The notes below the pieces were generated by a model that had not been told where the DNA came from, made no database searches, and was given only the letters and a program-made list of their open reading frames with translations. Of a stretch of 64,000 bases of DNA, positions 4,539 to 38,860 are shown piece by piece. Position numbers and translations under genes: made by a program. This DNA comes from Candidatus Magasanikbacteria bacterium RIFOXYD1_FULL_40_23 (GTDB taxonomy: Bacteria; Patescibacteriota; Patescibacteriia; Magasanikbacterales; GWA2-37-8). Every line of letters starts with the position of its first letter. Position 1 is the first letter of the stretch. The stretch lies in the NCBI GenBank assembly GCA_001783215.1, contig MFRA01000005.1, positions 146,824-210,823 of the forward strand, written 5' to 3'.

Positions 4539-4613
4539 GGATCTAGTTGTTCATTTTTGAAAGTGGAAAGGGTTGTAAAAAAACAACCACCTACCACTAC
4601 GTTAGTACCTATA

Positions 4614-4700
4614 CTCGAAATGAGTGAGTGAAATATTTAGCTTGCTCAAATATTTTCGAGCGAATGAGAATATATGCGGCGAAGCCCATATTTATTATAG
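4614..4700 (-). promoter_or_regulatory. R2 leader-element copy in reverse orientation (an orphan with no start codon behind it)
   Basis: The reverse complement reads ...tatattctcattcgctcgaaaatatttgagcaagctaaatatttcactcactcatttcgag. This is ~90% identical to the uvrD leader at 25432-25485. Confidence 0.45.
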
Positions 4701-13094: not shown

Positions 13095-13244
13095 GGTGGT
13101 AAGTTTAAACAGATTAATTGATTACTTGGATAGTTTACCGAATTTGACTGTGATTGTAAACAATCGGCCTAAGGGGTTGATTTTTATCGTTTTATATGGT
13201 ATAGATAAATTTGTATTCTTCCCACACAAACCACAAGAGGATAT

Positions 13245-13598
13245 ATGGAAGTTCCGTGTAGGTACGTCGTAGATCGTGAAGTTAGCCTCTATCTGCTTCT
13301 TTATGTGCTCCTCAAGAGCAAGCTGTCCGAAGAGCAGCAGGAAGTAATTGGCACGATGGACGAGATGGATGCCGAGTTGCACAACTTGGCCAAGCTGGTA
13401 TTGCCTGGCTATGCGAGTCAGTGGCCAAAGATGGCCCGTTTGCAGCTTCCGCATTTGGAGTCAGCTCTGCAGGAGCGGTTTCCGGAGTTGGTTCAGCTCC
13501 CTGTCAAGCACTTGCTTGGAGCAAGTCAGTTCCGAACGTGGTTGACTCATCAGGTCGCTCGCTTCGGTGAGTGGCTAGATATCGATTCGAAGGGGTAG
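13245..13598 (+). CDS. hypothetical protein (GC-rich; start uncertain)
   Basis: 117-aa ORF in a GC-rich patch. Followed by a hairpin plus T-run at ~13625-13660. Confidence 0.25.
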   Translation: MEVPCRYVVDREVSLYLLLYVLLKSKLSEEQQEVIGTMDEMDAELHNLAKLVLPGYASQWPKMARLQLPHLESALQERFPELVQLPVKHLLGASQFRTWLTHQVARFGEWLDIDSKG

Positions 13599-13656
13599 TA
13601 TAGTGGCGGAAGCCAAAATCGGTTGGGGCGCGGACTCTGTGTAGGACCGCCCTTTT

Positions 13657-17898: not shown

Positions 17899-19236
17899 TT
17901 AAATCCACTTTTTAAGTAACTCACCAAACTTATTTTGTTCAATTGCAGTTCGTGCTTGGTTCATTAGATCAAGCATAAAATATAAATTGTGAATGCTGGC
18001 CAAACGCATGCCGGAAAGTTCGCCAGCATTAAAAAGATGGTGCACGTACGCACGAGAATAATTTATGCAAGTATGGCATTTGCAATCTGGATCTATGGCG
18101 CCAGTATCTTTTGCATATTTTTTATTTGTAATATTGATTCGTAACTTTTCGTCTATATTTCTGTTTACAAATACCATGCCATGTCTGGCCAGTCTGGTAG
18201 GAGCCACACAATCAAACATATCTACGCCGTGCTCTATTGCAATAAGTAAATCTGTAGGGGACAAGCCGATACCCATAGCATAGTGCGGTTTGTTTTCTGG
18301 AATAAGAGGAAATACCCAGTCTAAAATATCGGCCGTTGCTTTCATATTATATCCCACAGATTCGCCGCCAATGGCGATACCGTCAAAATCTAAAGATGAA
18401 ATATATTTGGCAGATTCTTCGCGTAGATTTTTGTAAACAGATCCTTGGATAATACCAAAAAGAAATTGTTTATAATCACGAGTATTTTTTGTAGATAATT
18501 CTTTGTGCGCATCTAGGGATCGTTTGGCCCAGCGGTGGGTGCGTTCCATTGCTTCGCGCGCATATTTTTCTTCTACATTGTCCGGAGTGCATTCATCAAA
18601 TGCCATTATAATATCGGCGCCAATTTTGTGTTGGATCTCTACGGCTATTTCTGGAGTAAAGCGATGTGAGCTCCCATCTATATGTGAGCGAAAAGTAACA
18701 CCTTCTTCATCTATAGAAACAAGTTGGCCTTGTTCTCGTTTGTCATTCTGAGGCGTAGACGAAGAATCCCTTTTGTCCGAACGAGAGGGATCCTTCACTC
18801 CGTTCAGAGCCTGTCCTGAGTTTGTCGAAGGGATGACAGACTGCTGTCGGTCATCTTTTTGTTTGCCCAAACTAAATACTTGAAAACCACCACTATCGGT
18901 AAGGATTGGCTTGTTCCAGTTCATGAATTTGTGAAGTCCGCCAAAATCGTTTATTAAATCTTCGCCCGGGCGTAAATGCAAATGGTAAGTATTACCCAAG
19001 ATAATCTGAGCTGGTAAATTTTGCAGGTCAGTTTGGTCTAGAGTTTTGACTGTGGCTTGTGTGCCGACAGGCATAAAAATAGGTGTTTGAATATCACCAT
19101 GATCTGTATGGATTATGCCAGTTCTGGCACGGGAATTTGTGTCTTTGTGTTGTAGTTCAAAAAATGACATATTTTGGGGAAAGCTTAGCATGATTTTTGC
19201 TTTGTAGCAATGATATATAAATAAGCCCCAGGACAT
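17899..19236 (-). CDS. tgt: queuine tRNA-ribosyltransferase carrying an in-frame ~40-aa low-complexity insertion
   Basis: Tgt hallmarks are present (TPIFMPVGTQATVK, FSLG...EEGVTFRSHIDGS, DECTP). An extra hydrophilic segment, KQKDDRQQSVIPSTNSGQALNGVKDPSRSDKRDSSSTPQNDKREQ, is encoded by the R3 repeat at 18741-18840. Confidence 0.85.
   Translation of the reverse strand: MSWGLFIYHCYKAKIMLSFPQNMSFFELQHKDTNSRARTGIIHTDHGDIQTPIFMPVGTQATVKTLDQTDLQNLPAQIILGNTYHLHLRPGEDLINDFGGLHKFMNWNKPILTDSGGFQVFSLGKQKDDRQQSVIPSTNSGQALNGVKDPSRSDKRDSSSTPQNDKREQGQLVSIDEEGVTFRSHIDGSSHRFTPEIAVEIQHKIGADIIMAFDECTPDNVEEKYAREAMERTHRWAKRSLDAHKELSTKNTRDYKQFLFGIIQGSVYKNLREESAKYISSLDFDGIAIGGESVGYNMKATADILDWVFPLIPENKPHYAMGIGLSPTDLLIAIEHGVDMFDCVAPTRLARHGMVFVNRNIDEKLRINITNKKYAKDTGAIDPDCKCHTCINYSRAYVHHLFNAGELSGMRLASIHNLYFMLDLMNQARTAIEQNKFGELLKKWI
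18741..18840. repeat. R3 palindromic (MITE/RPE-like) element, copy A, inserted in-frame within tgt
   Basis: tgtcattctgaggcgtagacgaagaatcccttttgtccgaacgagagggatccttcactccgttcagagcctgtcctgagtttgtcgaagggatgacag shares the X/Y/Z modules with the copies at 21709-21738 and 22035-22168. Confidence 0.65.
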
Positions 19237-20648: not shown

Positions 20649-21707
20649 ATGCCTGGTGCAAAGTTGGTGCTAAAAGATGGTTCGGAATTTGAGGGGTTTT
20701 CTTTTGGTTCAGAGACTAGCATGGCAGGAGAAGTGGTATTTAACACAGGTATGGTCGGCTATCCCGAAACCATGACCGATCCTTCGTACAGAGGGCAAAT
20801 TTTGGTACTTACTTATCCGTTGGTAGGAAATTATGGTGTGCCGGGCGACGCAAACCCAGAAGAACTTTTTAAAAATTTTGAATCAGACAAAATCCAAATT
20901 CAAGGATTAATTGTAAGTGAGCAGTGTGAAGGATTTTCTCATTGGAGCGCCAAGCAATCTTTGTCTGATTGGATGAAAAAAAATAATATTCCAGGAATAT
21001 TTGGTGTAGACACGCGCGAGCTTACCAAAAAATTACGCTCTAGTGGTACTATGCTGGGTAAGATTGTAGTAGAAAATACTACGATAGATTTTGAAGATCC
21101 TAATTTACGTAATTTGGCAGCTGAAGTAAGTGTGAAAGAGCCTGTGCGATATGGCGCAGGAGAAAAAACAGTAATAGTGGTAGATTGTGGTGTAAAAAAT
21201 AATATCATTCGTTCGTTTGTAAATAGAGGCATTTCGGTTTTACGAGTGCCTTGGAATTATAATTTCTTAGAAGAAAAAGCTGACGGCATACTTATTTCTA
21301 ATGGTCCGGGTGATCCAAAAATGTGTACAGACACAATTGCCAATGTAAGATCTGCTTTGGCAGGCAATAGGTCAATACTTGGTATATGTTTGGGTTCGCA
21401 AATTTTGTCGCTCGCTGCCGGAGCCAACACTTATAAATTAAAATATGGGCATAGGGGCCAGAATCAGCCATGCGTAGAAATGGGAACAAAAAAATGTTTT
21501 ATCACTTCACAAAATCATGGTTTTGCAGTGGACACAAAAACCCTGCCACAAGATTGGCGCGAGTGGTTTACCAATGATAACGACGGCACAAACGAAGGTA
21601 TTATTCATATTTCTAAACCATTTTTTGGCGCACAGTTTCACCCGGAAGGCGCGCCCGGCCCAGACGACAGCGAGTTTATTTTTGATATGTTTATACGAAC
21701 ATTGTAG
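20649..21707 (+). CDS. carA: carbamoyl-phosphate synthase small (glutaminase) subunit
   Basis: The CarA N-domain (GEVVFNTGMVGYPETMTDPSYRGQILVLTYPLVGNYGVP) plus a class I GATase domain (ICLGSQ...HGF). Confidence 0.9.
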   Translation: MPGAKLVLKDGSEFEGFSFGSETSMAGEVVFNTGMVGYPETMTDPSYRGQILVLTYPLVGNYGVPGDANPEELFKNFESDKIQIQGLIVSEQCEGFSHWSAKQSLSDWMKKNNIPGIFGVDTRELTKKLRSSGTMLGKIVVENTTIDFEDPNLRNLAAEVSVKEPVRYGAGEKTVIVVDCGVKNNIIRSFVNRGISVLRVPWNYNFLEEKADGILISNGPGDPKMCTDTIANVRSALAGNRSILGICLGSQILSLAAGANTYKLKYGHRGQNQPCVEMGTKKCFITSQNHGFAVDTKTLPQDWREWFTNDNDGTNEGIIHISKPFFGAQFHPEGAPGPDDSEFIFDMFIRTL

Positions 21708-21708
21708 C

Positions 21709-21738
21709 TGTCATTCTGAGCAAAGCGAAGAATCCCTT
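21709..21738. repeat. R3 element copy B (X module only), immediately after the carA stop codon
   Basis: gtcattctgagcaaagcgaagaatccctt. Confidence 0.6.
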
Positions 21739-21773
21739 AACCTACGAATAATAAAGATTACTATGTCTACATT

Positions 21774-22034
21774 ATGGCCAGTGAAAGTGGAACATTGTAT
21801 GTCGGCGTAACAAACGATTTAACCCGCAGAATTTCAGAGCACAAACAAAATTTAATTGAAGGTTTTACTAAAAAATATAAATGTCATAAATTAGTATATT
21901 ACGAAAACTATTCAGATATAAAACAGGCTATTGCGAGAGAAAAGGAGATAAAAGGATGGTTAAGAAAAAAGAAAGAACAGTTAATTAAAAATATAAATCC
22001 TGGTTGGAAGGATTTAAGTGTAGAGTGGGTGTAA
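21774..22034 (+). CDS. GIY-YIG nuclease family protein (small UPF0213/YhbQ-like); possibly N-terminally disrupted
   Basis: GTLYVGVTNDLTRRISEHKQ...KLVYYE...AIAREKEIKGW. The in-frame upstream codons encode the conserved YYVYI strand, but there is no start codon between it and an upstream TAA. The R3 repeat abuts the gene. Confidence 0.6.
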   Translation: MASESGTLYVGVTNDLTRRISEHKQNLIEGFTKKYKCHKLVYYENYSDIKQAIAREKEIKGWLRKKKEQLIKNINPGWKDLSVEWV

Positions 22035-22168
22035 AGGGATCCTTCATTTCATTCAGAGCCTGCACTGAGCCGTAGCGAATGTGATGACAACGCCTGTCAT
22101 TCTGAGCAAAGCGAAGAATCCCTCTTGTCCGAACGAAAGGGATCCTTCACTCCGTTCAGGATGACAAA
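22035..22168. repeat. R3 element copy C (compound Y'-Z-X-Y-end modules), immediately after the GIY-YIG stop codon
   Basis: agggatccttcatttcattcagagcctgcactgagccgtagcgaatgtgatgacaacgcctgtcattctgagcaaagcgaagaatccctcttgtccgaacgaaagggatccttcactccgttcaggatgacaa. The imperfect terminal inverted repeats are TGTCATTCTGAGC and GTTCAGGATGACA. Confidence 0.65.
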
Positions 22169-22207
22169 ACGGATCGATTAGCTATAAATCCGCGTAATCC
22201 GTGTTTT

Positions 22208-25200
22208 ATGATCAGAAATATCAAACCAAAGAAAATTTTAATCCTAGGCTCCGGCGCTCTGCAGATTGGGCAGGCTGGCGAGTTTGATTATTCTGGAAGT
22301 CAGGCAATCAAAGCCTTAAAAGAAGATGGAATTTTTACAGTATTGGTCAATCCAAATATCGCTACTATCCAAACTTCAGATCATTTAGCAGATAAAGTAT
22401 ATTTTTTGCCGCTTAATATTTTTTTCGTAGAACAAGTAATTGCCAAAGAAAAACCGGATGGTATTTTGCTTGGCTTTGGTGGTCAGACTGCACTAAATGT
22501 TGGCGTGCAACTCTACGAAAAAGGTATTTTAGAAAAGTACAATGTAAAAGTTTTGGGTACACAGGTAGAAGTAATAAAAGACACAGAAGATAGGCAATTA
22601 TTTTCTAACAGAGTGGCAGAGGTTGGGTTAAAAGTCGCTAGAAGTGTAACTGCCGGCACTGTTCAAGAAGCACTGGACGCTGCAGACAAAATTGGCTATC
22701 CGGTAATGTGTCGCGTGGCTTATGCTTTGGGCGGATTAGGGTCGGGAATTGTGCAAAACAAAGCCGAGTTGGAAGAAAAAACAAACAGAGCTTTTGCTTT
22801 TACAAATCAAGTTTTAATTGAAGAATGTTTGTATGGTTGGAAAGAAGTAGAATACGAAATTGTACGCGATGTCCACGATAATTGTATTACGATTTGTTCC
22901 ATGGAAAATTTTGATCCAATGGGTATCCATACTGGAGATAGTATCGTGGTAGCACCTGTGCAAACTCTTACTGCCAAAGAAAATTTTAATTTGCGTGCTA
23001 TTGGTATAAAGCTAATTAGGCATCTAGGAATTATTGGTGAGTGCAATATTCAATATGCGCTGGATCCAAACTCTGGTGATTATCGTATTATAGAAGTAAA
23101 TGCTCGTCTTAGCCGCAGTTCGGCTCTAGCTTCCAAAGCTACCGGCTATCCGCTGGCGTTTGTGGCTACCAAATTGGCTTTGGGTTATGCGCTTAACGAA
23201 GTAGAAAATATTATAACCAAAGAAACCTCGGCCTGTTTTGAGCCAGCACTTGATTATATTACGCTTAAATTTCCTCGTTGGGATTTGCAGAAATTTGAAC
23301 ATGTAAACAAAGTGCTTGGTACAGAAATGAAATCTGTGGGGGAAGTAATGGCAATTGGCCGTAGTTTTGAAGAAGTTCTGCAAAAAGCGATTCGCATGTT
23401 GGACGTTGGTATGAATGGTTTGGTAGGTAATGACATTGATTTTGCAGAATTAGATAAAGAAATTACTCAGCCAACAGACAAAAGGATTTTTGCGATTGTC
23501 CAGGCTATAAAATCCGGATATTCTATAGAAAAAGTTCACGAACTTTCCAAAGTTGATAATTGGTTTTTGCATAAACTAAAAAATATAATTGATTTGGAAA
23601 GTAAATTAAAAAATTATAATTTAGAAACTCTGCCTATAGAAGTTTTGCGACCAGCCAAACAAGCCGGATTTTCGGACAAACAAATAGCTGGGGTAATAGG
23701 TTCTGTGGCCGAAGCGGTACGCGCCAAGCGAAAATCATTGGGAGTGTTGCCGGTTGTAAAGCAGATAGATACTCTAGCCGCCGAGTACCCCGCTAAAACA
23801 AATTATTTATATCTTACATACAATGGCCGCGAAAACGATATTGTTCGCTCTACAGAAAAACAAGTTATAGTGCTTGGCAGTGGTCCGTATCGCATTGGTT
23901 CGTCGGTAGAGTTTGATTGGTGTTGTGTAAATTCTCTCATGAGTCTGCAAAAAGCTGGTTACAAAACTATTATGATAAATTGTAATCCAGAAACTGTTAG
24001 TACTGACTACGATGTTTCCGACCAATTATATTTTGAAGAATTAAGCCTAGAAAAGATTTTGGATATTTATGAATTTCAACAGCCGTTGGGCGTGGTAGTT
24101 TCTATGGGTGGCCAAACACCAAATAATTTGGCTCTAAAGTTGCACAATGCGGGTGTAAAAATTTTGGGTACAACGCCGGAACAAATAGATAATGCCGAAA
24201 GCAGGCATAAATTTTCTCAGATTTTGGATAGTCTAGAAATAGACCAGCCGGAATGGAAAGAACTTACCGATATAGATTCGGCCAAAGAGTTTGCGCAGCG
24301 AGTGGGATATCCGGTTTTGGTGCGCCCCAGCTATGTTCTTAGTGGTGCTGCGATGAGCATATCTTATAGTGAAGATGATTTGGAATTATTTTTGAAAAAA
24401 GCAGTTGATTTAAACAAAGAATATCCGGTGGTGATAAGCAAATTTATTACCAAGGCTAGAGAGATAGAGATGGATGCGGTAGCCAACAATGGCGAGTTAT
24501 TTTGCTATGCCATTTCCGAACATTTAGAAAACGCGGGCGTGCATTCTGGAGATGCTACGCTTGTATTTCCTCCACAAAAAACATATTTGGAAACAACTCG
24601 CAGATTAAAAGTAATTGCCAAAGAAGTGGCCAAGGCTTTGCAAATTACTGGTCCGTTTAATATGCAGCTCATTGCCAAAGATAATGATATTAAAGTAATT
24701 GAATGCAATTTGCGCGCATCTCGCAGTTTTCCATTTGTATCCAAAGTTTTAAAAATAAATTTTATAGATATTGCTACCAGATTAATGATGGGGGAGTCTG
24801 TACCGAAATTAAGTCGATCGTCTTTCGATTTGGATTATGTGGGTGTAAAAGCGTCGCAATTTTCTTTTACCAGATTAAAGGGTTCTGATCCAGTGACGCG
24901 CGTAGAGATGAGTTCTACTGGAGAGGTGGCGTGTCTAGGAGATAATTTGAATGAAGCGTTTTTGAAAAGCGTAATTTCTACTGGTTTTAATGTGGAGCCA
25001 AAATCAGTTTTGTTATCTATTGGTTCGCTGGATAAAAAAACCGCCTTTTTGGAAGAAGCTAAAATTTTGCAGACTATGGGAGTAAAAATTTATGCTACCA
25101 CCGGCACAGGCGCATTTTTGAAAGAAAATAATATTGAAGCAGAAGTTTTGGAATGGAATTTGGAAAATGGCCAACCAAATGTGATGTCGCACTTGTCCGA

Positions 25201-25402
25201 TAAAAAAATTGATTTGGTGATTGGTATTCCTAGTAACACCGAGAAGGCCGGGTTAAGTAATGGCTATTTGGCTAGAAGAAAAGCCATAGATCAGAACATT
25301 TCTCTTATTACTAATTTGGAATTTGCCAGACGTTATGTAAAAGCTATTAGTAAATTTAAAATGAGTGATCTGAAAATAAAAAGCTGGGATGAGTATTTAT
25401 AA
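22208..25402 (+). CDS. carB: carbamoyl-phosphate synthase large subunit
   Basis: 1064 aa. Two ATP-grasp halves (KILILGSGALQIGQAGEFDYSGSQA... and VIVLGSGPYRIGSSVEFDWC...) plus an MGS-like C-terminus. Confidence 0.92.
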   Translation: MIRNIKPKKILILGSGALQIGQAGEFDYSGSQAIKALKEDGIFTVLVNPNIATIQTSDHLADKVYFLPLNIFFVEQVIAKEKPDGILLGFGGQTALNVGVQLYEKGILEKYNVKVLGTQVEVIKDTEDRQLFSNRVAEVGLKVARSVTAGTVQEALDAADKIGYPVMCRVAYALGGLGSGIVQNKAELEEKTNRAFAFTNQVLIEECLYGWKEVEYEIVRDVHDNCITICSMENFDPMGIHTGDSIVVAPVQTLTAKENFNLRAIGIKLIRHLGIIGECNIQYALDPNSGDYRIIEVNARLSRSSALASKATGYPLAFVATKLALGYALNEVENIITKETSACFEPALDYITLKFPRWDLQKFEHVNKVLGTEMKSVGEVMAIGRSFEEVLQKAIRMLDVGMNGLVGNDIDFAELDKEITQPTDKRIFAIVQAIKSGYSIEKVHELSKVDNWFLHKLKNIIDLESKLKNYNLETLPIEVLRPAKQAGFSDKQIAGVIGSVAEAVRAKRKSLGVLPVVKQIDTLAAEYPAKTNYLYLTYNGRENDIVRSTEKQVIVLGSGPYRIGSSVEFDWCCVNSLMSLQKAGYKTIMINCNPETVSTDYDVSDQLYFEELSLEKILDIYEFQQPLGVVVSMGGQTPNNLALKLHNAGVKILGTTPEQIDNAESRHKFSQILDSLEIDQPEWKELTDIDSAKEFAQRVGYPVLVRPSYVLSGAAMSISYSEDDLELFLKKAVDLNKEYPVVISKFITKAREIEMDAVANNGELFCYAISEHLENAGVHSGDATLVFPPQKTYLETTRRLKVIAKEVAKALQITGPFNMQLIAKDNDIKVIECNLRASRSFPFVSKVLKINFIDIATRLMMGESVPKLSRSSFDLDYVGVKASQFSFTRLKGSDPVTRVEMSSTGEVACLGDNLNEAFLKSVISTGFNVEPKSVLLSIGSLDKKTAFLEEAKILQTMGVKIYATTGTGAFLKENNIEAEVLEWNLENGQPNVMSHLSDKKIDLVIGIPSNTEKAGLSNGYLARRKAIDQNISLITNLEFARRYVKAISKFKMSDLKIKSWDEYL

Positions 25403-25408
25403 AATTAT

Positions 25409-25485
25409 AGGGGCTAAAGCCCATATAATCTCATTCGTTCGAAAATATTTAAGCAAGCTAAATATCTTACTCACTCATTTCGATT
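25409..25485 (+). promoter_or_regulatory. R2 leader element (hairpin, TATAAT, CTCATTCG(C/T)TCG(G/A)AAA, AT-rich hairpin, CTCACTCATTTCGA) abutting the uvrD start codon
   Basis: aggggctaaagcccatataatctcattcgttcgaaaatatttaagcaagctaaatatcttactcactcatttcgattATG. Confidence 0.5.
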
Positions 25486-27522
25486 ATGATTGATTTTGTA
25501 AAAGAGCTGAATCAAGAACAGCTAGAAGTAGTTTTACACGGCGATGGGCCGTGTTTAGTTTTGGCTGGCGCCGGGAGCGGCAAAACCAGAGTAATTACTT
25601 ATCGGGTAGCATATCTGTTGGAGCAAGGCGTAGATCCAGAAAATATATTGCTCGTCACCTTTACCAATAAAGCGGCCGACGAAATGATTCGTCGTGTACA
25701 GAGCTTAACCAATTCTCCAAAACGCTTGCCTTGGGCCGGCACGTTCCATCATATTGCCTATAGGATTCTCAAAATTTATGCAGCTATTTTGGGTTACAAA
25801 AGTAATTTTTCGGTATTAGACAGCGATGATAGCGAAACAATTTTAAAGTTATGTGCCAAACCATTTAAATCCGATACGGGTCGAACTAAATTTCCTTCGG
25901 CACGCGTGCTTCAATCTATAATTAGTTTTGCTCGTAATTCCGAAACTACAGTAGAAGATGTATTGGATTTAAAATATCCGCAATGGATGGTTTTTGCCGA
26001 TCAGATAAAAAGCGTGGCACATGAATATGAAGTGAAAAAGAAAGAAGCCAATGCTATGGACTTTGATGATTTGTTGGTAAATTTTTGTAATTTATTAAAT
26101 CACGAACAGGCATTAAAAAAGTATTCGCAGCAGTTTAAATATATTTTGGTAGACGAATACCAAGATACAAATAAAATTCAATCTTCTATAATCAAAAAAT
26201 TGGCTAGTGCGCACGGCAATATGCTTGTGGTGGGCGATGACGCACAAAGTATTTATTCTTTTCGCGCCGCTGACATTGCCAATATTTTGCAATTCGAAAA
26301 AGAATTTCCAAATGCCAAAGTATTTAAATTAGAAACCAATTATCGTTCCACGGCCGAAATTTTAGATGTGGCCAACGACGTTATAGTTAATAATACAAAG
26401 CAATACAAAAAACAATTAAAAACTGTATTAGAAAATGGAGAAAAACCTACGCTTCACCCGCAGATGGACCAATCCAATGAAGCTGAATTTGTAACCGGTA
26501 AAATTTTGGAGCTACTAGACAAAGGCACGCCGGCCAACGAAATTGCAGTTTTGTTTCGCGCGGCGCACCATTCACAGCTTTTGGAAATGGAGTTAGTAAA
26601 AGCCGGGATTATTTATGATTACCGCGGAGGGCTTAGATTTTTTGAACGCGCTCACGTAAAAGATGTTTTGGCATATTTACGAATACTAAATAATTTGACC
26701 GATACAGCCGCGTGGATGCGTGTGCTTATGCACGAAGAGGGAATTGGCGCGGTGGCAGCTAGTAAAATTACTGAAGCATTAAAAAAAGCAACCAACGTGG
26801 AAGATGTGAAAATAATCGGTCAAGAAATTTTGGGAGAGAAAGCCAAAAATGGTTGGAATAATTTTGTGCGCATCTGGGAAAGTATGTTGGGCAAAAGCCG
26901 CACCGATACTTCTGGGCTTATACAATCTGTAATTAATTCTCCGTACAAAGACTATTTAGAAGGAGAATATATAGATAGTAGAGATAGATTAGAAGACATT
27001 GCCCAGTTGCAAGTTTTTGCCGAAAAATATAATGAATTAGAGCAATTTTTGGCCGAAGCTACGCTGCAAGAGGGTTTTGGTGGTGGCAAAGGTGGAAATC
27101 AAAACAGAGAAAGTTCTGGTCCAAAAGTGGTATTGTCTACAATTCATCAAGCCAAAGGGTTAGAATGGGCGGCTGTGTTTATTATCAATTTGGCCTCAGG
27201 TGCTTTCCCAAACGATAGAGCGCTGCACGAAAATAATGGATTAGAAGAAGAACGCCGGTTGCTGTATGTGGCCATAACTCGTGCCAAAAAACATTTGCAC
27301 CTTACGTATCCTATGTCGGGGGGTGGGTTTGGAGATTCACTTGCCGGTCCAAGTATGTTTTTAGGAGAGATTAGTTCGGATTTATTAGAGGATCATTCGC
27401 TTCTTTCTTATGGTAATGGTTTAGTGCTCAACGACGAAGCAGCTGGTGTGACATATATAAATGAAGACAAACCATTGCGTATAAAACCGGGCAGTTTTTT
27501 GCGTGGTTTGGACGATCTTTAG
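25486..27522 (+). CDS. pcrA: ATP-dependent DNA helicase, UvrD/PcrA/Rep family
   Basis: Helicase motif I AGAGSGKTRVITYRVAYLL. The TFTNKAADEM, LVDEYQDTN and NYRST motifs are also present. 678 aa. Confidence 0.85.
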   Translation: MIDFVKELNQEQLEVVLHGDGPCLVLAGAGSGKTRVITYRVAYLLEQGVDPENILLVTFTNKAADEMIRRVQSLTNSPKRLPWAGTFHHIAYRILKIYAAILGYKSNFSVLDSDDSETILKLCAKPFKSDTGRTKFPSARVLQSIISFARNSETTVEDVLDLKYPQWMVFADQIKSVAHEYEVKKKEANAMDFDDLLVNFCNLLNHEQALKKYSQQFKYILVDEYQDTNKIQSSIIKKLASAHGNMLVVGDDAQSIYSFRAADIANILQFEKEFPNAKVFKLETNYRSTAEILDVANDVIVNNTKQYKKQLKTVLENGEKPTLHPQMDQSNEAEFVTGKILELLDKGTPANEIAVLFRAAHHSQLLEMELVKAGIIYDYRGGLRFFERAHVKDVLAYLRILNNLTDTAAWMRVLMHEEGIGAVAASKITEALKKATNVEDVKIIGQEILGEKAKNGWNNFVRIWESMLGKSRTDTSGLIQSVINSPYKDYLEGEYIDSRDRLEDIAQLQVFAEKYNELEQFLAEATLQEGFGGGKGGNQNRESSGPKVVLSTIHQAKGLEWAAVFIINLASGAFPNDRALHENNGLEEERRLLYVAITRAKKHLHLTYPMSGGGFGDSLAGPSMFLGEISSDLLEDHSLLSYGNGLVLNDEAAGVTYINEDKPLRIKPGSFLRGLDDL

Positions 27523-29200: not shown

Positions 29201-29347
29201 TTTAAAAAATAAAATTGGTAATTTGTCCATCCGGACAGAGATCCCTGCTCCACCGCTAAAGCTATGGCGGCACGCGGTCGTCGGCCCAAAGGGGCCTCGC
29301 TCGGGATGACAAACCAATCCAGAACTCAAATAATTAATAAATAAATT

Positions 29348-38790: not shown

Positions 38791-38860
38791 GCTTGAAATT
38801 CCGTCGCTCGCCCCAGATGAACACAAGCTTTCGCCTGGGGGCTCGCTAGGAATTATAAAA
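38791..38860 (+). promoter_or_regulatory. R1 leader element (variant) upstream of the ABC ATPase
   Basis: gcttgaaattccgtcgctcgccccagatgaacacaagctttcgcctgggggctcgctaggaattataaaa. Confidence 0.5.

Follow-up and report, generated by a model that had tools for sequence, protein, structure and literature searches.

The region studied here is a stretch of 64,000 nucleotides (hereafter the window) from Candidatus Magasanikbacteria bacterium RIFOXYD1_FULL_40_23 (GenBank assembly GCA_001783215.1, contig MFRA01000005.1, positions 146,824 to 210,823). Within the window, the genes encoding the small and the large subunit of carbamoyl-phosphate synthase, carA (20649-21707, plus strand, an open reading frame (ORF) with the Pfam domains CPSase_sm_chain and GATase) and carB (22208-25402, plus strand, also an ORF supported by Pfam), are separated by a short cassette (21709-22166) composed, in this order, of a forward repeat arm, a small GIY-YIG nuclease gene (ssn), a reverse repeat arm, and a pair of arms without a gene. 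An earlier note on this DNA had named the repeats R3 and had placed an 86-residue GIY-YIG ORF between carA and carB, with one R3 copy right after the carA stop and a compound R3 copy after the nuclease stop. The ORF was indeed found at 21774-22034, between positions 21707 and 22208; the first R3 copy is located at 21709-21737, one base past the TAG stop codon of carA (21705-21707), and the compound copy corresponds to a reverse arm at 22035-22089 followed by an arm pair at 22095-22166. Altogether, the data make it probable that the element at 21709-22166 is an Ssn/SRM cassette inserted in a carA-carB junction that is normally tight, and that this cassette has lost the start codon of its nuclease gene and is most likely inactivated.

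Assignment of the nuclease gene to the Ssn family

The ssn frame, as reconstructed from the Pfam match and from homologues, extends on the plus strand from 21744 to 22034 (96 codons plus TAA) and encodes a single-domain GIY-YIG protein. The Pfam GIY-YIG model was matched with an E-value of 4e-17 over profile positions 2-77 of 78, which in the conceptual frame of 97 residues are residues 7-79; a second domain was not found with Pfam. The pairing of Ssn nucleases with hairpin repeats termed SRMs has been described previously (Chenal et al., Nat Commun 2025, PMC11893778). In that work, SsnA of Neisseria meningitidis (NMB0047), a 94-residue single-domain GIY-YIG protein of the family CDD cd10448 (GIY-YIG_unchar_3), was found to bind the NTS repeat CGTCATTCCCGCGMAVGCGGGAATCYRG solely as single-stranded DNA and to cut a few nucleotides upstream of it (PMC11893778).

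Comparison of the ssn frame with the SsnA orthologue of Neisseria gonorrhoeae revealed 51% identity over 85 residues, with a pairwise E-value of 2e-29, and a tblastn search of the window with the same orthologue gave an E-value of 9e-25. Both values lie below the similarity threshold applied to Ssn homologues in the published study (E < 1e-10; PMC11893778). The N. gonorrhoeae orthologue corresponds to a 94-residue ORF (locus L180, positions 1519-1803) recognized by its length, by its residues Y6, Y17 and E64, and by its canonical NTS flanks. The source of this comparison, PLSDB entry NZ_CP119140.1, is a 2.17-Mb N. gonorrhoeae chromosome filed as a plasmid.

The earlier note had regarded the gene as a UPF0213/YhbQ-like one. 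Two solved UPF0213 proteins, BH0048 and EF2693, were reached by the family profile with E-values of 8e-9 and 1.5e-7, respectively. Since the match to SsnA is far stronger than these, the UPF0213/YhbQ identity was rejected, and the window gene belongs, judged by its sequence, to the Ssn family, which comprises nucleases of single-stranded DNA. Readings of the gene as a phage or defense-system component were dropped as well, the corresponding PHROGs and PADLOC hits being marginal (E about 0.005-0.007). Literature searches beyond PMC11893778 retrieved no relevant work on nuclease-repeat units of this kind and no later follow-up.

Relatives of the ssn product in the protein database number in the thousands and are mostly 96 residues long. 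The exact 86-residue protein (P0002) was found there in Candidatus Magasanikbacteria RIFOXYD2_FULL_39_9, and another relative (P0003) is 82% identical to the ssn frame of the window. All three catalytic residues, equivalent to Y6, Y17 and E64 of SsnA, are encoded in the frame, and the first of them is missing from the 86-residue product.

Loss of the ssn start codon

The annotated 86-residue ORF begins with ATG at 21774 and ends with TAA at 22032-22034 on the plus strand, and its initial methionine is an internal one, residue 11 of the ancestral protein. The codons for YYVYI, which make up the first beta strand of the domain, lie at 21759-21773, upstream of this only canonical start, and include the TAC triplet (21768-21770) for the tyrosine equivalent to SsnA Y6. 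The annotated start removes this first strand, because the GIY-YIG alignment begins at YYVYI; the claim of the earlier note that part of the catalytic core is trimmed is thus borne out by the Pfam match. The same note had observed that KDYYVYI is encoded upstream without a start codon, and this was confirmed by reading of the frame, which runs TAA CCT ACG AAT AAT AAA GAT TAC TAT GTC TAC ATT ATG into the annotated ORF (translated upstream of that ATG as *PTNNKDYYVYIM). Read codon by codon, this segment contained no ATG, GTG or TTG between the in-frame TAA that closes the nuclease frame upstream (21738-21740) and the ATG at 21774. A scan of 21500-22400 for promoters and terminators gave nothing exceeding shuffled sequences.

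Alignment to homologues placed an ACG codon (21744-21746) at the position of the ancestral start. The N-terminus of the closest relatives reads M-N-x-K/R-D-Y-Y-V-Y-I-M-A-S, and the DNA of one of them (locus L001), CCCTTAACCT ATG AAT AGT AAA GAT TAC TAT, corresponds in the window to CCCTTAACCT ACG AAT AAT AAA GAT TAC TAT. This alignment indicates that an ancestral ATG was changed to ACG by one transition, T to C. The ACG allele is identical in ten independent assemblies derived from different samples, so that a sequencing error does not account for it. Among 109 distinct ssn genes sampled, the start codon is ATG in 88, GTG in 16 and TTG in 2, and the remaining 3, that of the window included, have no canonical start; these few copies are scattered and are not a conserved class.

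Structure of the R3 repeat arms

The R3 arms follow the consensus T-GTC-AT-YYY-GA-GC-GNA-GC-GA-RRR-AT-CCC. Using GTCAT-N3-(5-40 nt)-N3-ATCY as the frame, we searched the window and about 170 loci carrying ssn relatives for arms. The two triplets of the frame were perfectly complementary in 427 of 800 matches, as compared with 1.6% expected by chance, and at least six pair types were common. For the analysis of covariation we used 132 distinct arms with an 11-nucleotide (nt) center, chosen irrespective of pairing. In this sample, 93.3% of the pairing cells were complementary, as compared with 80.2% after shuffling and at most 49% when the partners were slid against each other, and 140 double changes were counted where 38 were expected; none of 500 shuffles reached the observed values. 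Compensatory changes were found at all five variable pairs, and the base preceding GTC was T or C in every one of the 132 arms. The pairing and the compensatory changes therefore indicate that every R3 arm forms an oriented hairpin and that the compound R3 consists of two inverted arms, a point that goes beyond the earlier note. The design is shared with NTS, in which GTC is followed by a stem starting with AT, a loop, a matching stem with a final AT, and then C. We consider the R3 arms to be a GA-bulged variant of the SRM, a large class recognized here from its design and overlooked by the published search pattern.

In the window, the forward arm at 21709-21737 (plus strand; TGTCATTCTGAGCAAAGCGAAGAATCCCT) parses as T-GTC-ATTCT-GA-GC-AAA-GC-GA-AGAAT-CCCT and is supported by exact repetition, complementary triplets and covariation. 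The 30-mer CTGTCATTCTGAGCAAAGCGAAGAATCCCT that contains it (21708-21737) recurs at 22094-22123, where none was expected from 100 shuffles. The reverse arm directly 3′ of the ssn stop (22035-22089, minus strand) carries a 26-nt internal insert after GTCATC, a subtype also present at 18785-18838. The gene-less pair is made up of a forward arm identical to the first one (22095-22123, plus strand) and a reverse arm, TGTCATCCTGAACGGAGTGAAGGATCCCT, with a complementary frame match (22138-22166, minus strand). As DNA, this pair (22095-22166) folds with -13.9 kcal/mol (z -2.95). A further pair was found inside the tgt gene (see below), and a single isolated SRM-like arm in reverse orientation, which contains a long structured insert (29236-29311, minus strand, a frame match), lies approximately 35 nt upstream of rpsL (29348). 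The total for the 64-kb window is seven arms at four sites. A scan of the window with Rfam at gathering thresholds detected two tRNAs only and no repeat family, and a permissive Rfam scan of 21650-22260 gave sub-threshold look-alikes of microRNA hairpins only, so that no described RNA family fits.

Insertion of the cassette in the carA-carB junction

The junction was compared with those following carA orthologues 78-95% identical to that of the window. In accordance with the check proposed in the earlier note, the two genes overlap or lie 11-38 nt apart in several relatives: they overlap by 4 nt (ATGA) in locus L183 (carA 86% identical) and are separated by 11 nt in L096 (88%) and by 38 nt in L181 (87%). 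Other relatives have the junction occupied in a different way, by a gene-less arm pair inside a 119-nt spacer in L098 (carA 84%), by an unrelated palindromic repeat in L184 (78%), and, in L099 (95%), by another ssn, which starts with a canonical ATG and is accompanied by the arm TGTCATTCCCGTGAAAGCGGGAATCCAG. Since the junction is overlapping, short or otherwise occupied in these relatives, we conclude that the cassette is an insertion. The ssn genes of L099 and of the window are 71% identical, as compared with 95% for carA, and this difference implies that the junction was hit repeatedly or that its occupant was replaced. The L099 arm is of the NTS type and fits the published SRM pattern. Within one genus-level clade, five occupancy states of the carA-carB junction were seen, three of them with SRM arms and involving two arm types. 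The repeat in the L184 junction (2300-2418) is the palindromic CTCACACTCCCCAACCCCTCTCAAGAGGGG...CCTCCTGTGAGGAGGG..., and the carA-carB junction appears to attract several hairpin-repeat families.

A second filled site was identified in tgt (17899-19236, minus strand), where an arm pair (18741-18838; forward arm 18741-18771, reverse arm 18785-18838) is inserted in frame. This pair lengthens a variable loop in queuine tRNA-ribosyltransferase by about 30 residues and cuts the Pfam TGT match in two, and the tgt orthologues of L096 and L098 do not have it. The tgt gene of L098 (1132-2403) carries at a different position another in-frame insert of 28 residues, LPLTKREREGVAEVSAPTPPTPSRAEGD, which is absent from the window and from L096.

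These sites display traits of an insertion sequence or of a MITE (miniature inverted-repeat transposable element), namely inverted arms that bracket the gene and orthologous sites that are either filled or empty. No target-site duplication was visible by eye at the inspected junctions, where filled sites differ from empty ones by a divergence of 12-16%. The spacer between rlmH and trpS (13095-13656, both genes on the minus strand) was considered as a second empty-site test, because in L001 an intact ssn is located there between perfect arms, and was rejected, as in the window it carries an unrelated 117-residue ORF. This ORF (13245-13598, plus strand) has a higher G+C content and no Pfam match.

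Nuclease-repeat cassettes in related loci

The architecture of the cassette was further analyzed in 80 metagenome and 80 genome loci with ssn relatives, among the matches listed. Of the non-redundant metagenome loci, 65 in number, 38 had a significant inverted repeat across the gene flanks. Among arms located no more than 60 nt upstream of ssn, 50 were on the same strand as the gene and 10 on the opposite one; within 60 nt downstream, 50 were on the opposite strand and 14 on the same one. In the cleanest loci, the TAA stop codon of ssn is part of the right arm (CCCTTA / TAAGGG). The arm-ssn-arm layout recurs around relatives mostly in candidate-phyla-radiation bacteria (about 170-180 loci sampled), and the other hosts listed for the genome loci include Bacteroidales, Anaerolineae, Acidobacteria and Zixibacteria, among others. 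Bacterial Ssn homologues were previously reported to be flanked by related motifs, on both sides in 42% of cases (PMC11893778).

These results bear on the idea of a free-standing GIY-YIG homing endonuclease located by chance beside unrelated genomic repeats. The GIY-YIG fold is common to both kinds of protein, and a weak match to the NCBIfam model of group I intron endonucleases (TIGR01453) was obtained. This match reached 18.5 bits against a cut-off of 56, for which the intron-endonuclease identity was rejected; the protein is a bare catalytic domain of 96 residues without a DNA-binding module, and dozens of homologues from unrelated genomes are likewise surrounded by oriented arms. The homing-endonuclease explanation is thus very improbable.

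When ssn genes with recognizable arms were considered, 58 of 60 had arms of the GA type, in a sample in which the spacing between the two catalytic tyrosines is mostly 10 and few genes have a spacing of 11. Each Ssn lineage may co-vary with its own arm type, GA-bulged arms going with a Tyr-Tyr spacing of 10 and continuous NTS-type arms with a spacing of 11.

Some contigs lose their match to the window in this region. Locus L093 (contig ERZ5996431 NODE_61350) agrees with the window as far as 22056, a position within the right arm, and continues with unrelated genes, and the ends of loci L090 and L091 lie at 22173 and 22144, respectively. In these loci the arms are break points of the assembly or points of recombination.

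Functional status of the ssn copy

The only canonical start of the frame drops the Y6 equivalent together with the first strand of the core, and replacement of Y6 by alanine abolishes cutting by SsnA. On these grounds, the comparison favors the view that this ssn copy is a young pseudogene. The suggestion of a pseudogene made in the earlier note was thus a reasonable one, the ancestral ATG now being ACG. At best, the product would be an N-terminally truncated protein, predicted to be cleavage-incompetent.

Several observations weigh against the interpretation of the locus as an inactivated Ssn/SRM cassette. The ssn frame is intact apart from its start codon, and the ratio of nonsynonymous to synonymous substitution rates (dN/dS) was approximately 0.1 in comparison with three relatives, with synonymous sites saturated. 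The loss of the start is therefore recent relative to the history of the gene, on which selection acted until not long ago and which may be expressed even now. Furthermore, Shine-Dalgarno-like motifs precede 3 of the 21 long ORFs in the window, the host seems little reliant on them, and initiation at the ATG at 21774 or at the ACG may be compatible with the sequence. Given this low proportion, arguments on the start codon that are based on Shine-Dalgarno motifs are uninformative. Regarding the family assignment, the comparison was made with the N. gonorrhoeae orthologue, the assayed protein being that of N. meningitidis. As for the repeats, a single-arm hairpin was not stable by nearest-neighbor folding (-1.9 kcal/mol, z about 0). 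The nearest-neighbor model deals badly with central GA/GA mismatches and with the GCGAAGC mini-hairpin, and for this reason we take the evidence for the hairpin from covariation alone. Finally, the published SRM pattern, HGTCWYN(0-2)YYVSBRHN(0-5)WNVSBRGN(0-2)RNCYNB (PMC11893778), matched nothing in the window and just 9 of the 427 arms in the loci. Because of this failure, the identification of R3 with the SRM is based on the shared design and on the homologous gene.

The same data are relevant to the possibility that a working, full-length Ssn nuclease is produced at a low level from the near-cognate ACG at 21744. Such a start would be in agreement with a frame that remains intact over 96 codons at the dN/dS value given above, with the presence of every catalytic residue, with the fixation of the allele in the ten assemblies, and with a start selection that may be relaxed in a genome where Shine-Dalgarno motifs are rare. 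On the contrary, 106 of the 109 sampled ssn genes have ATG, GTG or TTG, and the close relatives carry ATG at this very codon. ACG is, moreover, a very poor initiator in bacteria where it has been measured, and we consider this possibility unlikely.

It is also unlikely that the 86-residue product, translated from the ATG at 21774, has been kept as a nuclease-dead binder of R3 hairpins, for instance as a protector or a regulator. The folding of such a protein is doubtful, because the GIY-YIG core is a three-stranded sheet and the missing segment is its first strand. In addition, start-less copies, being rare and scattered (3 of 109), form no conserved class, and selection tests do not distinguish such a binder from recent decay. 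In its favor, nothing but the strand with the Y6 equivalent is lost by the truncation, the population is fixed for the allele, and the SsnA variants Y6A, Y17A and E64A keep the binding of single-stranded DNA and lose cutting (PMC11893778). A young pseudogene within an inserted Ssn/SRM cassette is the explanation that we retain.

Proposed mechanism and implications

GIY-YIG enzymes act as hydrolytic nucleases and, to our knowledge, include no transposase. By homology to SsnA and NTS, the R3 arms would be the binding and cleavage sites of the nuclease, and the ancestral 96-residue protein would have bound and cut R3 single strands, as extrapolated from experiments with the Neisseria and Wolbachia proteins. 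The forward and reverse arms would set one cut site per strand, just outside the cassette. Any joining after cutting would fall to host repair or recombination, because GIY-YIG enzymes hydrolyze DNA without a covalent intermediate.

The earlier note had described the locus as a mobile nuclease-plus-repeat unit. The data support an inserted unit in which nuclease and repeats are paired, and a mobilizing role of the nuclease was not established. We propose only tentatively, with rather less than even confidence, that candidate-phyla-radiation bacteria harbor actively mobile Ssn/SRM cassettes and arm pairs without a gene, which have entered the same junction repeatedly and can land in frame within essential genes such as tgt. 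If so, comparative evidence would be available for the first time for the behavior, like that of an insertion sequence, that was only proposed in PMC11893778, and the definition of the repeat would take in a class outside the published SRM pattern. The carA-carB junction, with its five states in close relatives, offers a natural test bed for cassette movement.

The very common hairpin repeats of candidate-phyla-radiation genomes, and their small genes annotated as "GIY-YIG nuclease family", come with these results within the Ssn/SRM framework, whose biochemistry has been established. With respect to annotation, the 86-residue gene call represents a truncated reading of a start-less gene, and R3-derived peptides in proteins such as Tgt represent repeat insertions.

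Other features of the window

Apart from its own small clade, where identity is 75-95%, carA has its best matches in Thermoplasmata archaea (69-72% identity), which hints at an acquisition of carAB by inter-domain transfer into the lineage. An intergenic repeat family, ATAGGGGCTnnGCCCATATATTCTCATTCGCTCGGAAA, was detected at 4611-4691 (minus strand), 25407-25487, 30302, 45660 and 54890; one of its copies lies directly 3′ of carB, ahead of the next gene, and the family may represent a shared promoter or leader. A second intergenic family, consisting of AAATAAGC..GCTTGAAATTCCGTCGGGC, a hairpin, and GCCCTAGnAATTATAA, was observed at 38791, 47421, 50779 and 56454.

Comparison with known systems

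The closest counterpart of the cassette is the SsnA/NTS pair. Both nucleases are single domains of about 95 residues with the same catalytic Tyr, Tyr and Glu and the same Tyr-to-Glu spacing of 47. In both systems oriented hairpins, with (T/C)GTC-AT first and AT-C last, lie on either side of the gene, and extra repeat copies without a gene are present elsewhere in the genome. There are also differences, since the window copy has no start codon, its Tyr-Tyr spacing is 10 and not 11 as in SsnA, and its arm is GA-bulged (AT-YYY-GA-GC-GNA-GC-GA-RRR-AT) and lies outside the published SRM pattern. The host is a candidate-phyla-radiation bacterium of the Magasanikbacteria, whereas the published study stresses Pseudomonadati (PMC11893778). 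One arm pair of the window is located in frame inside a gene, whereas only 2% of the NTS copies of N. meningitidis are intragenic. Binding of single-stranded hairpins and cutting 5′ of the repeat have been demonstrated for four Ssn homologues, and SsnA reduces transformation by NTS-bearing DNA in Neisseria (PMC11893778). Hydrolytic cutting of single-stranded DNA beside the hairpin is the only Ssn activity demonstrated, and restriction of transforming DNA in Neisseria the only role; the NTS-ssnA-NTS unit has been likened, as a hypothesis, to an insertion sequence and to REP/RAYT, its role in other bacteria being left open (PMC11893778).

The UPF0213 proteins (BH0048, PDB 1zg2; EF2693, PDB 1ywl; Escherichia coli YhbQ) resemble the ssn product in being bare GIY-YIG domains of about 100 residues, and they include the nearest solved structures by sequence, but they belong to a separate CDD family and are far more distant than SsnA. 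We know of no hairpin repeats associated with UPF0213 proteins. GIY-YIG homing endonucleases of the I-TevI type have the catalytic fold and a tie to mobile DNA in common with the ssn product, whereas they bear DNA-binding modules and cut double-stranded alleles, and the window protein has no such modules.

The resemblance to REPIN-RAYT systems resides in a small nuclease gene placed between inverted hairpin repeats, in the scattering of the same hairpins as inverted doublets, and in the recognition of single-stranded hairpins, a parallel also drawn in PMC11893778. The window enzyme is, however, a hydrolytic GIY-YIG nuclease, whereas RAYT is an HUH/Y1 transposase with a covalent intermediate. 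Membership in this group was thus rejected, the resemblance being architectural, and strand transfer by Ssn itself is not expected.

The palindromic elements of Rickettsia are short palindromic repeats that lie in frame in coding genes and are tolerated as extra surface loops. The in-frame insertion in tgt is similar to them by description, the link being a lead only, and Rickettsia is among the genomes with more than 300 SRMs (PMC11893778).

In conclusion, the system at the carA-carB junction is the already known Ssn/SRM pair and not a new kind of system. Beyond what was described in PMC11893778, this analysis adds the GA-bulged class of arms, the abundance of the cassettes in candidate-phyla-radiation genomes, and the polymorphism of occupancy at one junction.

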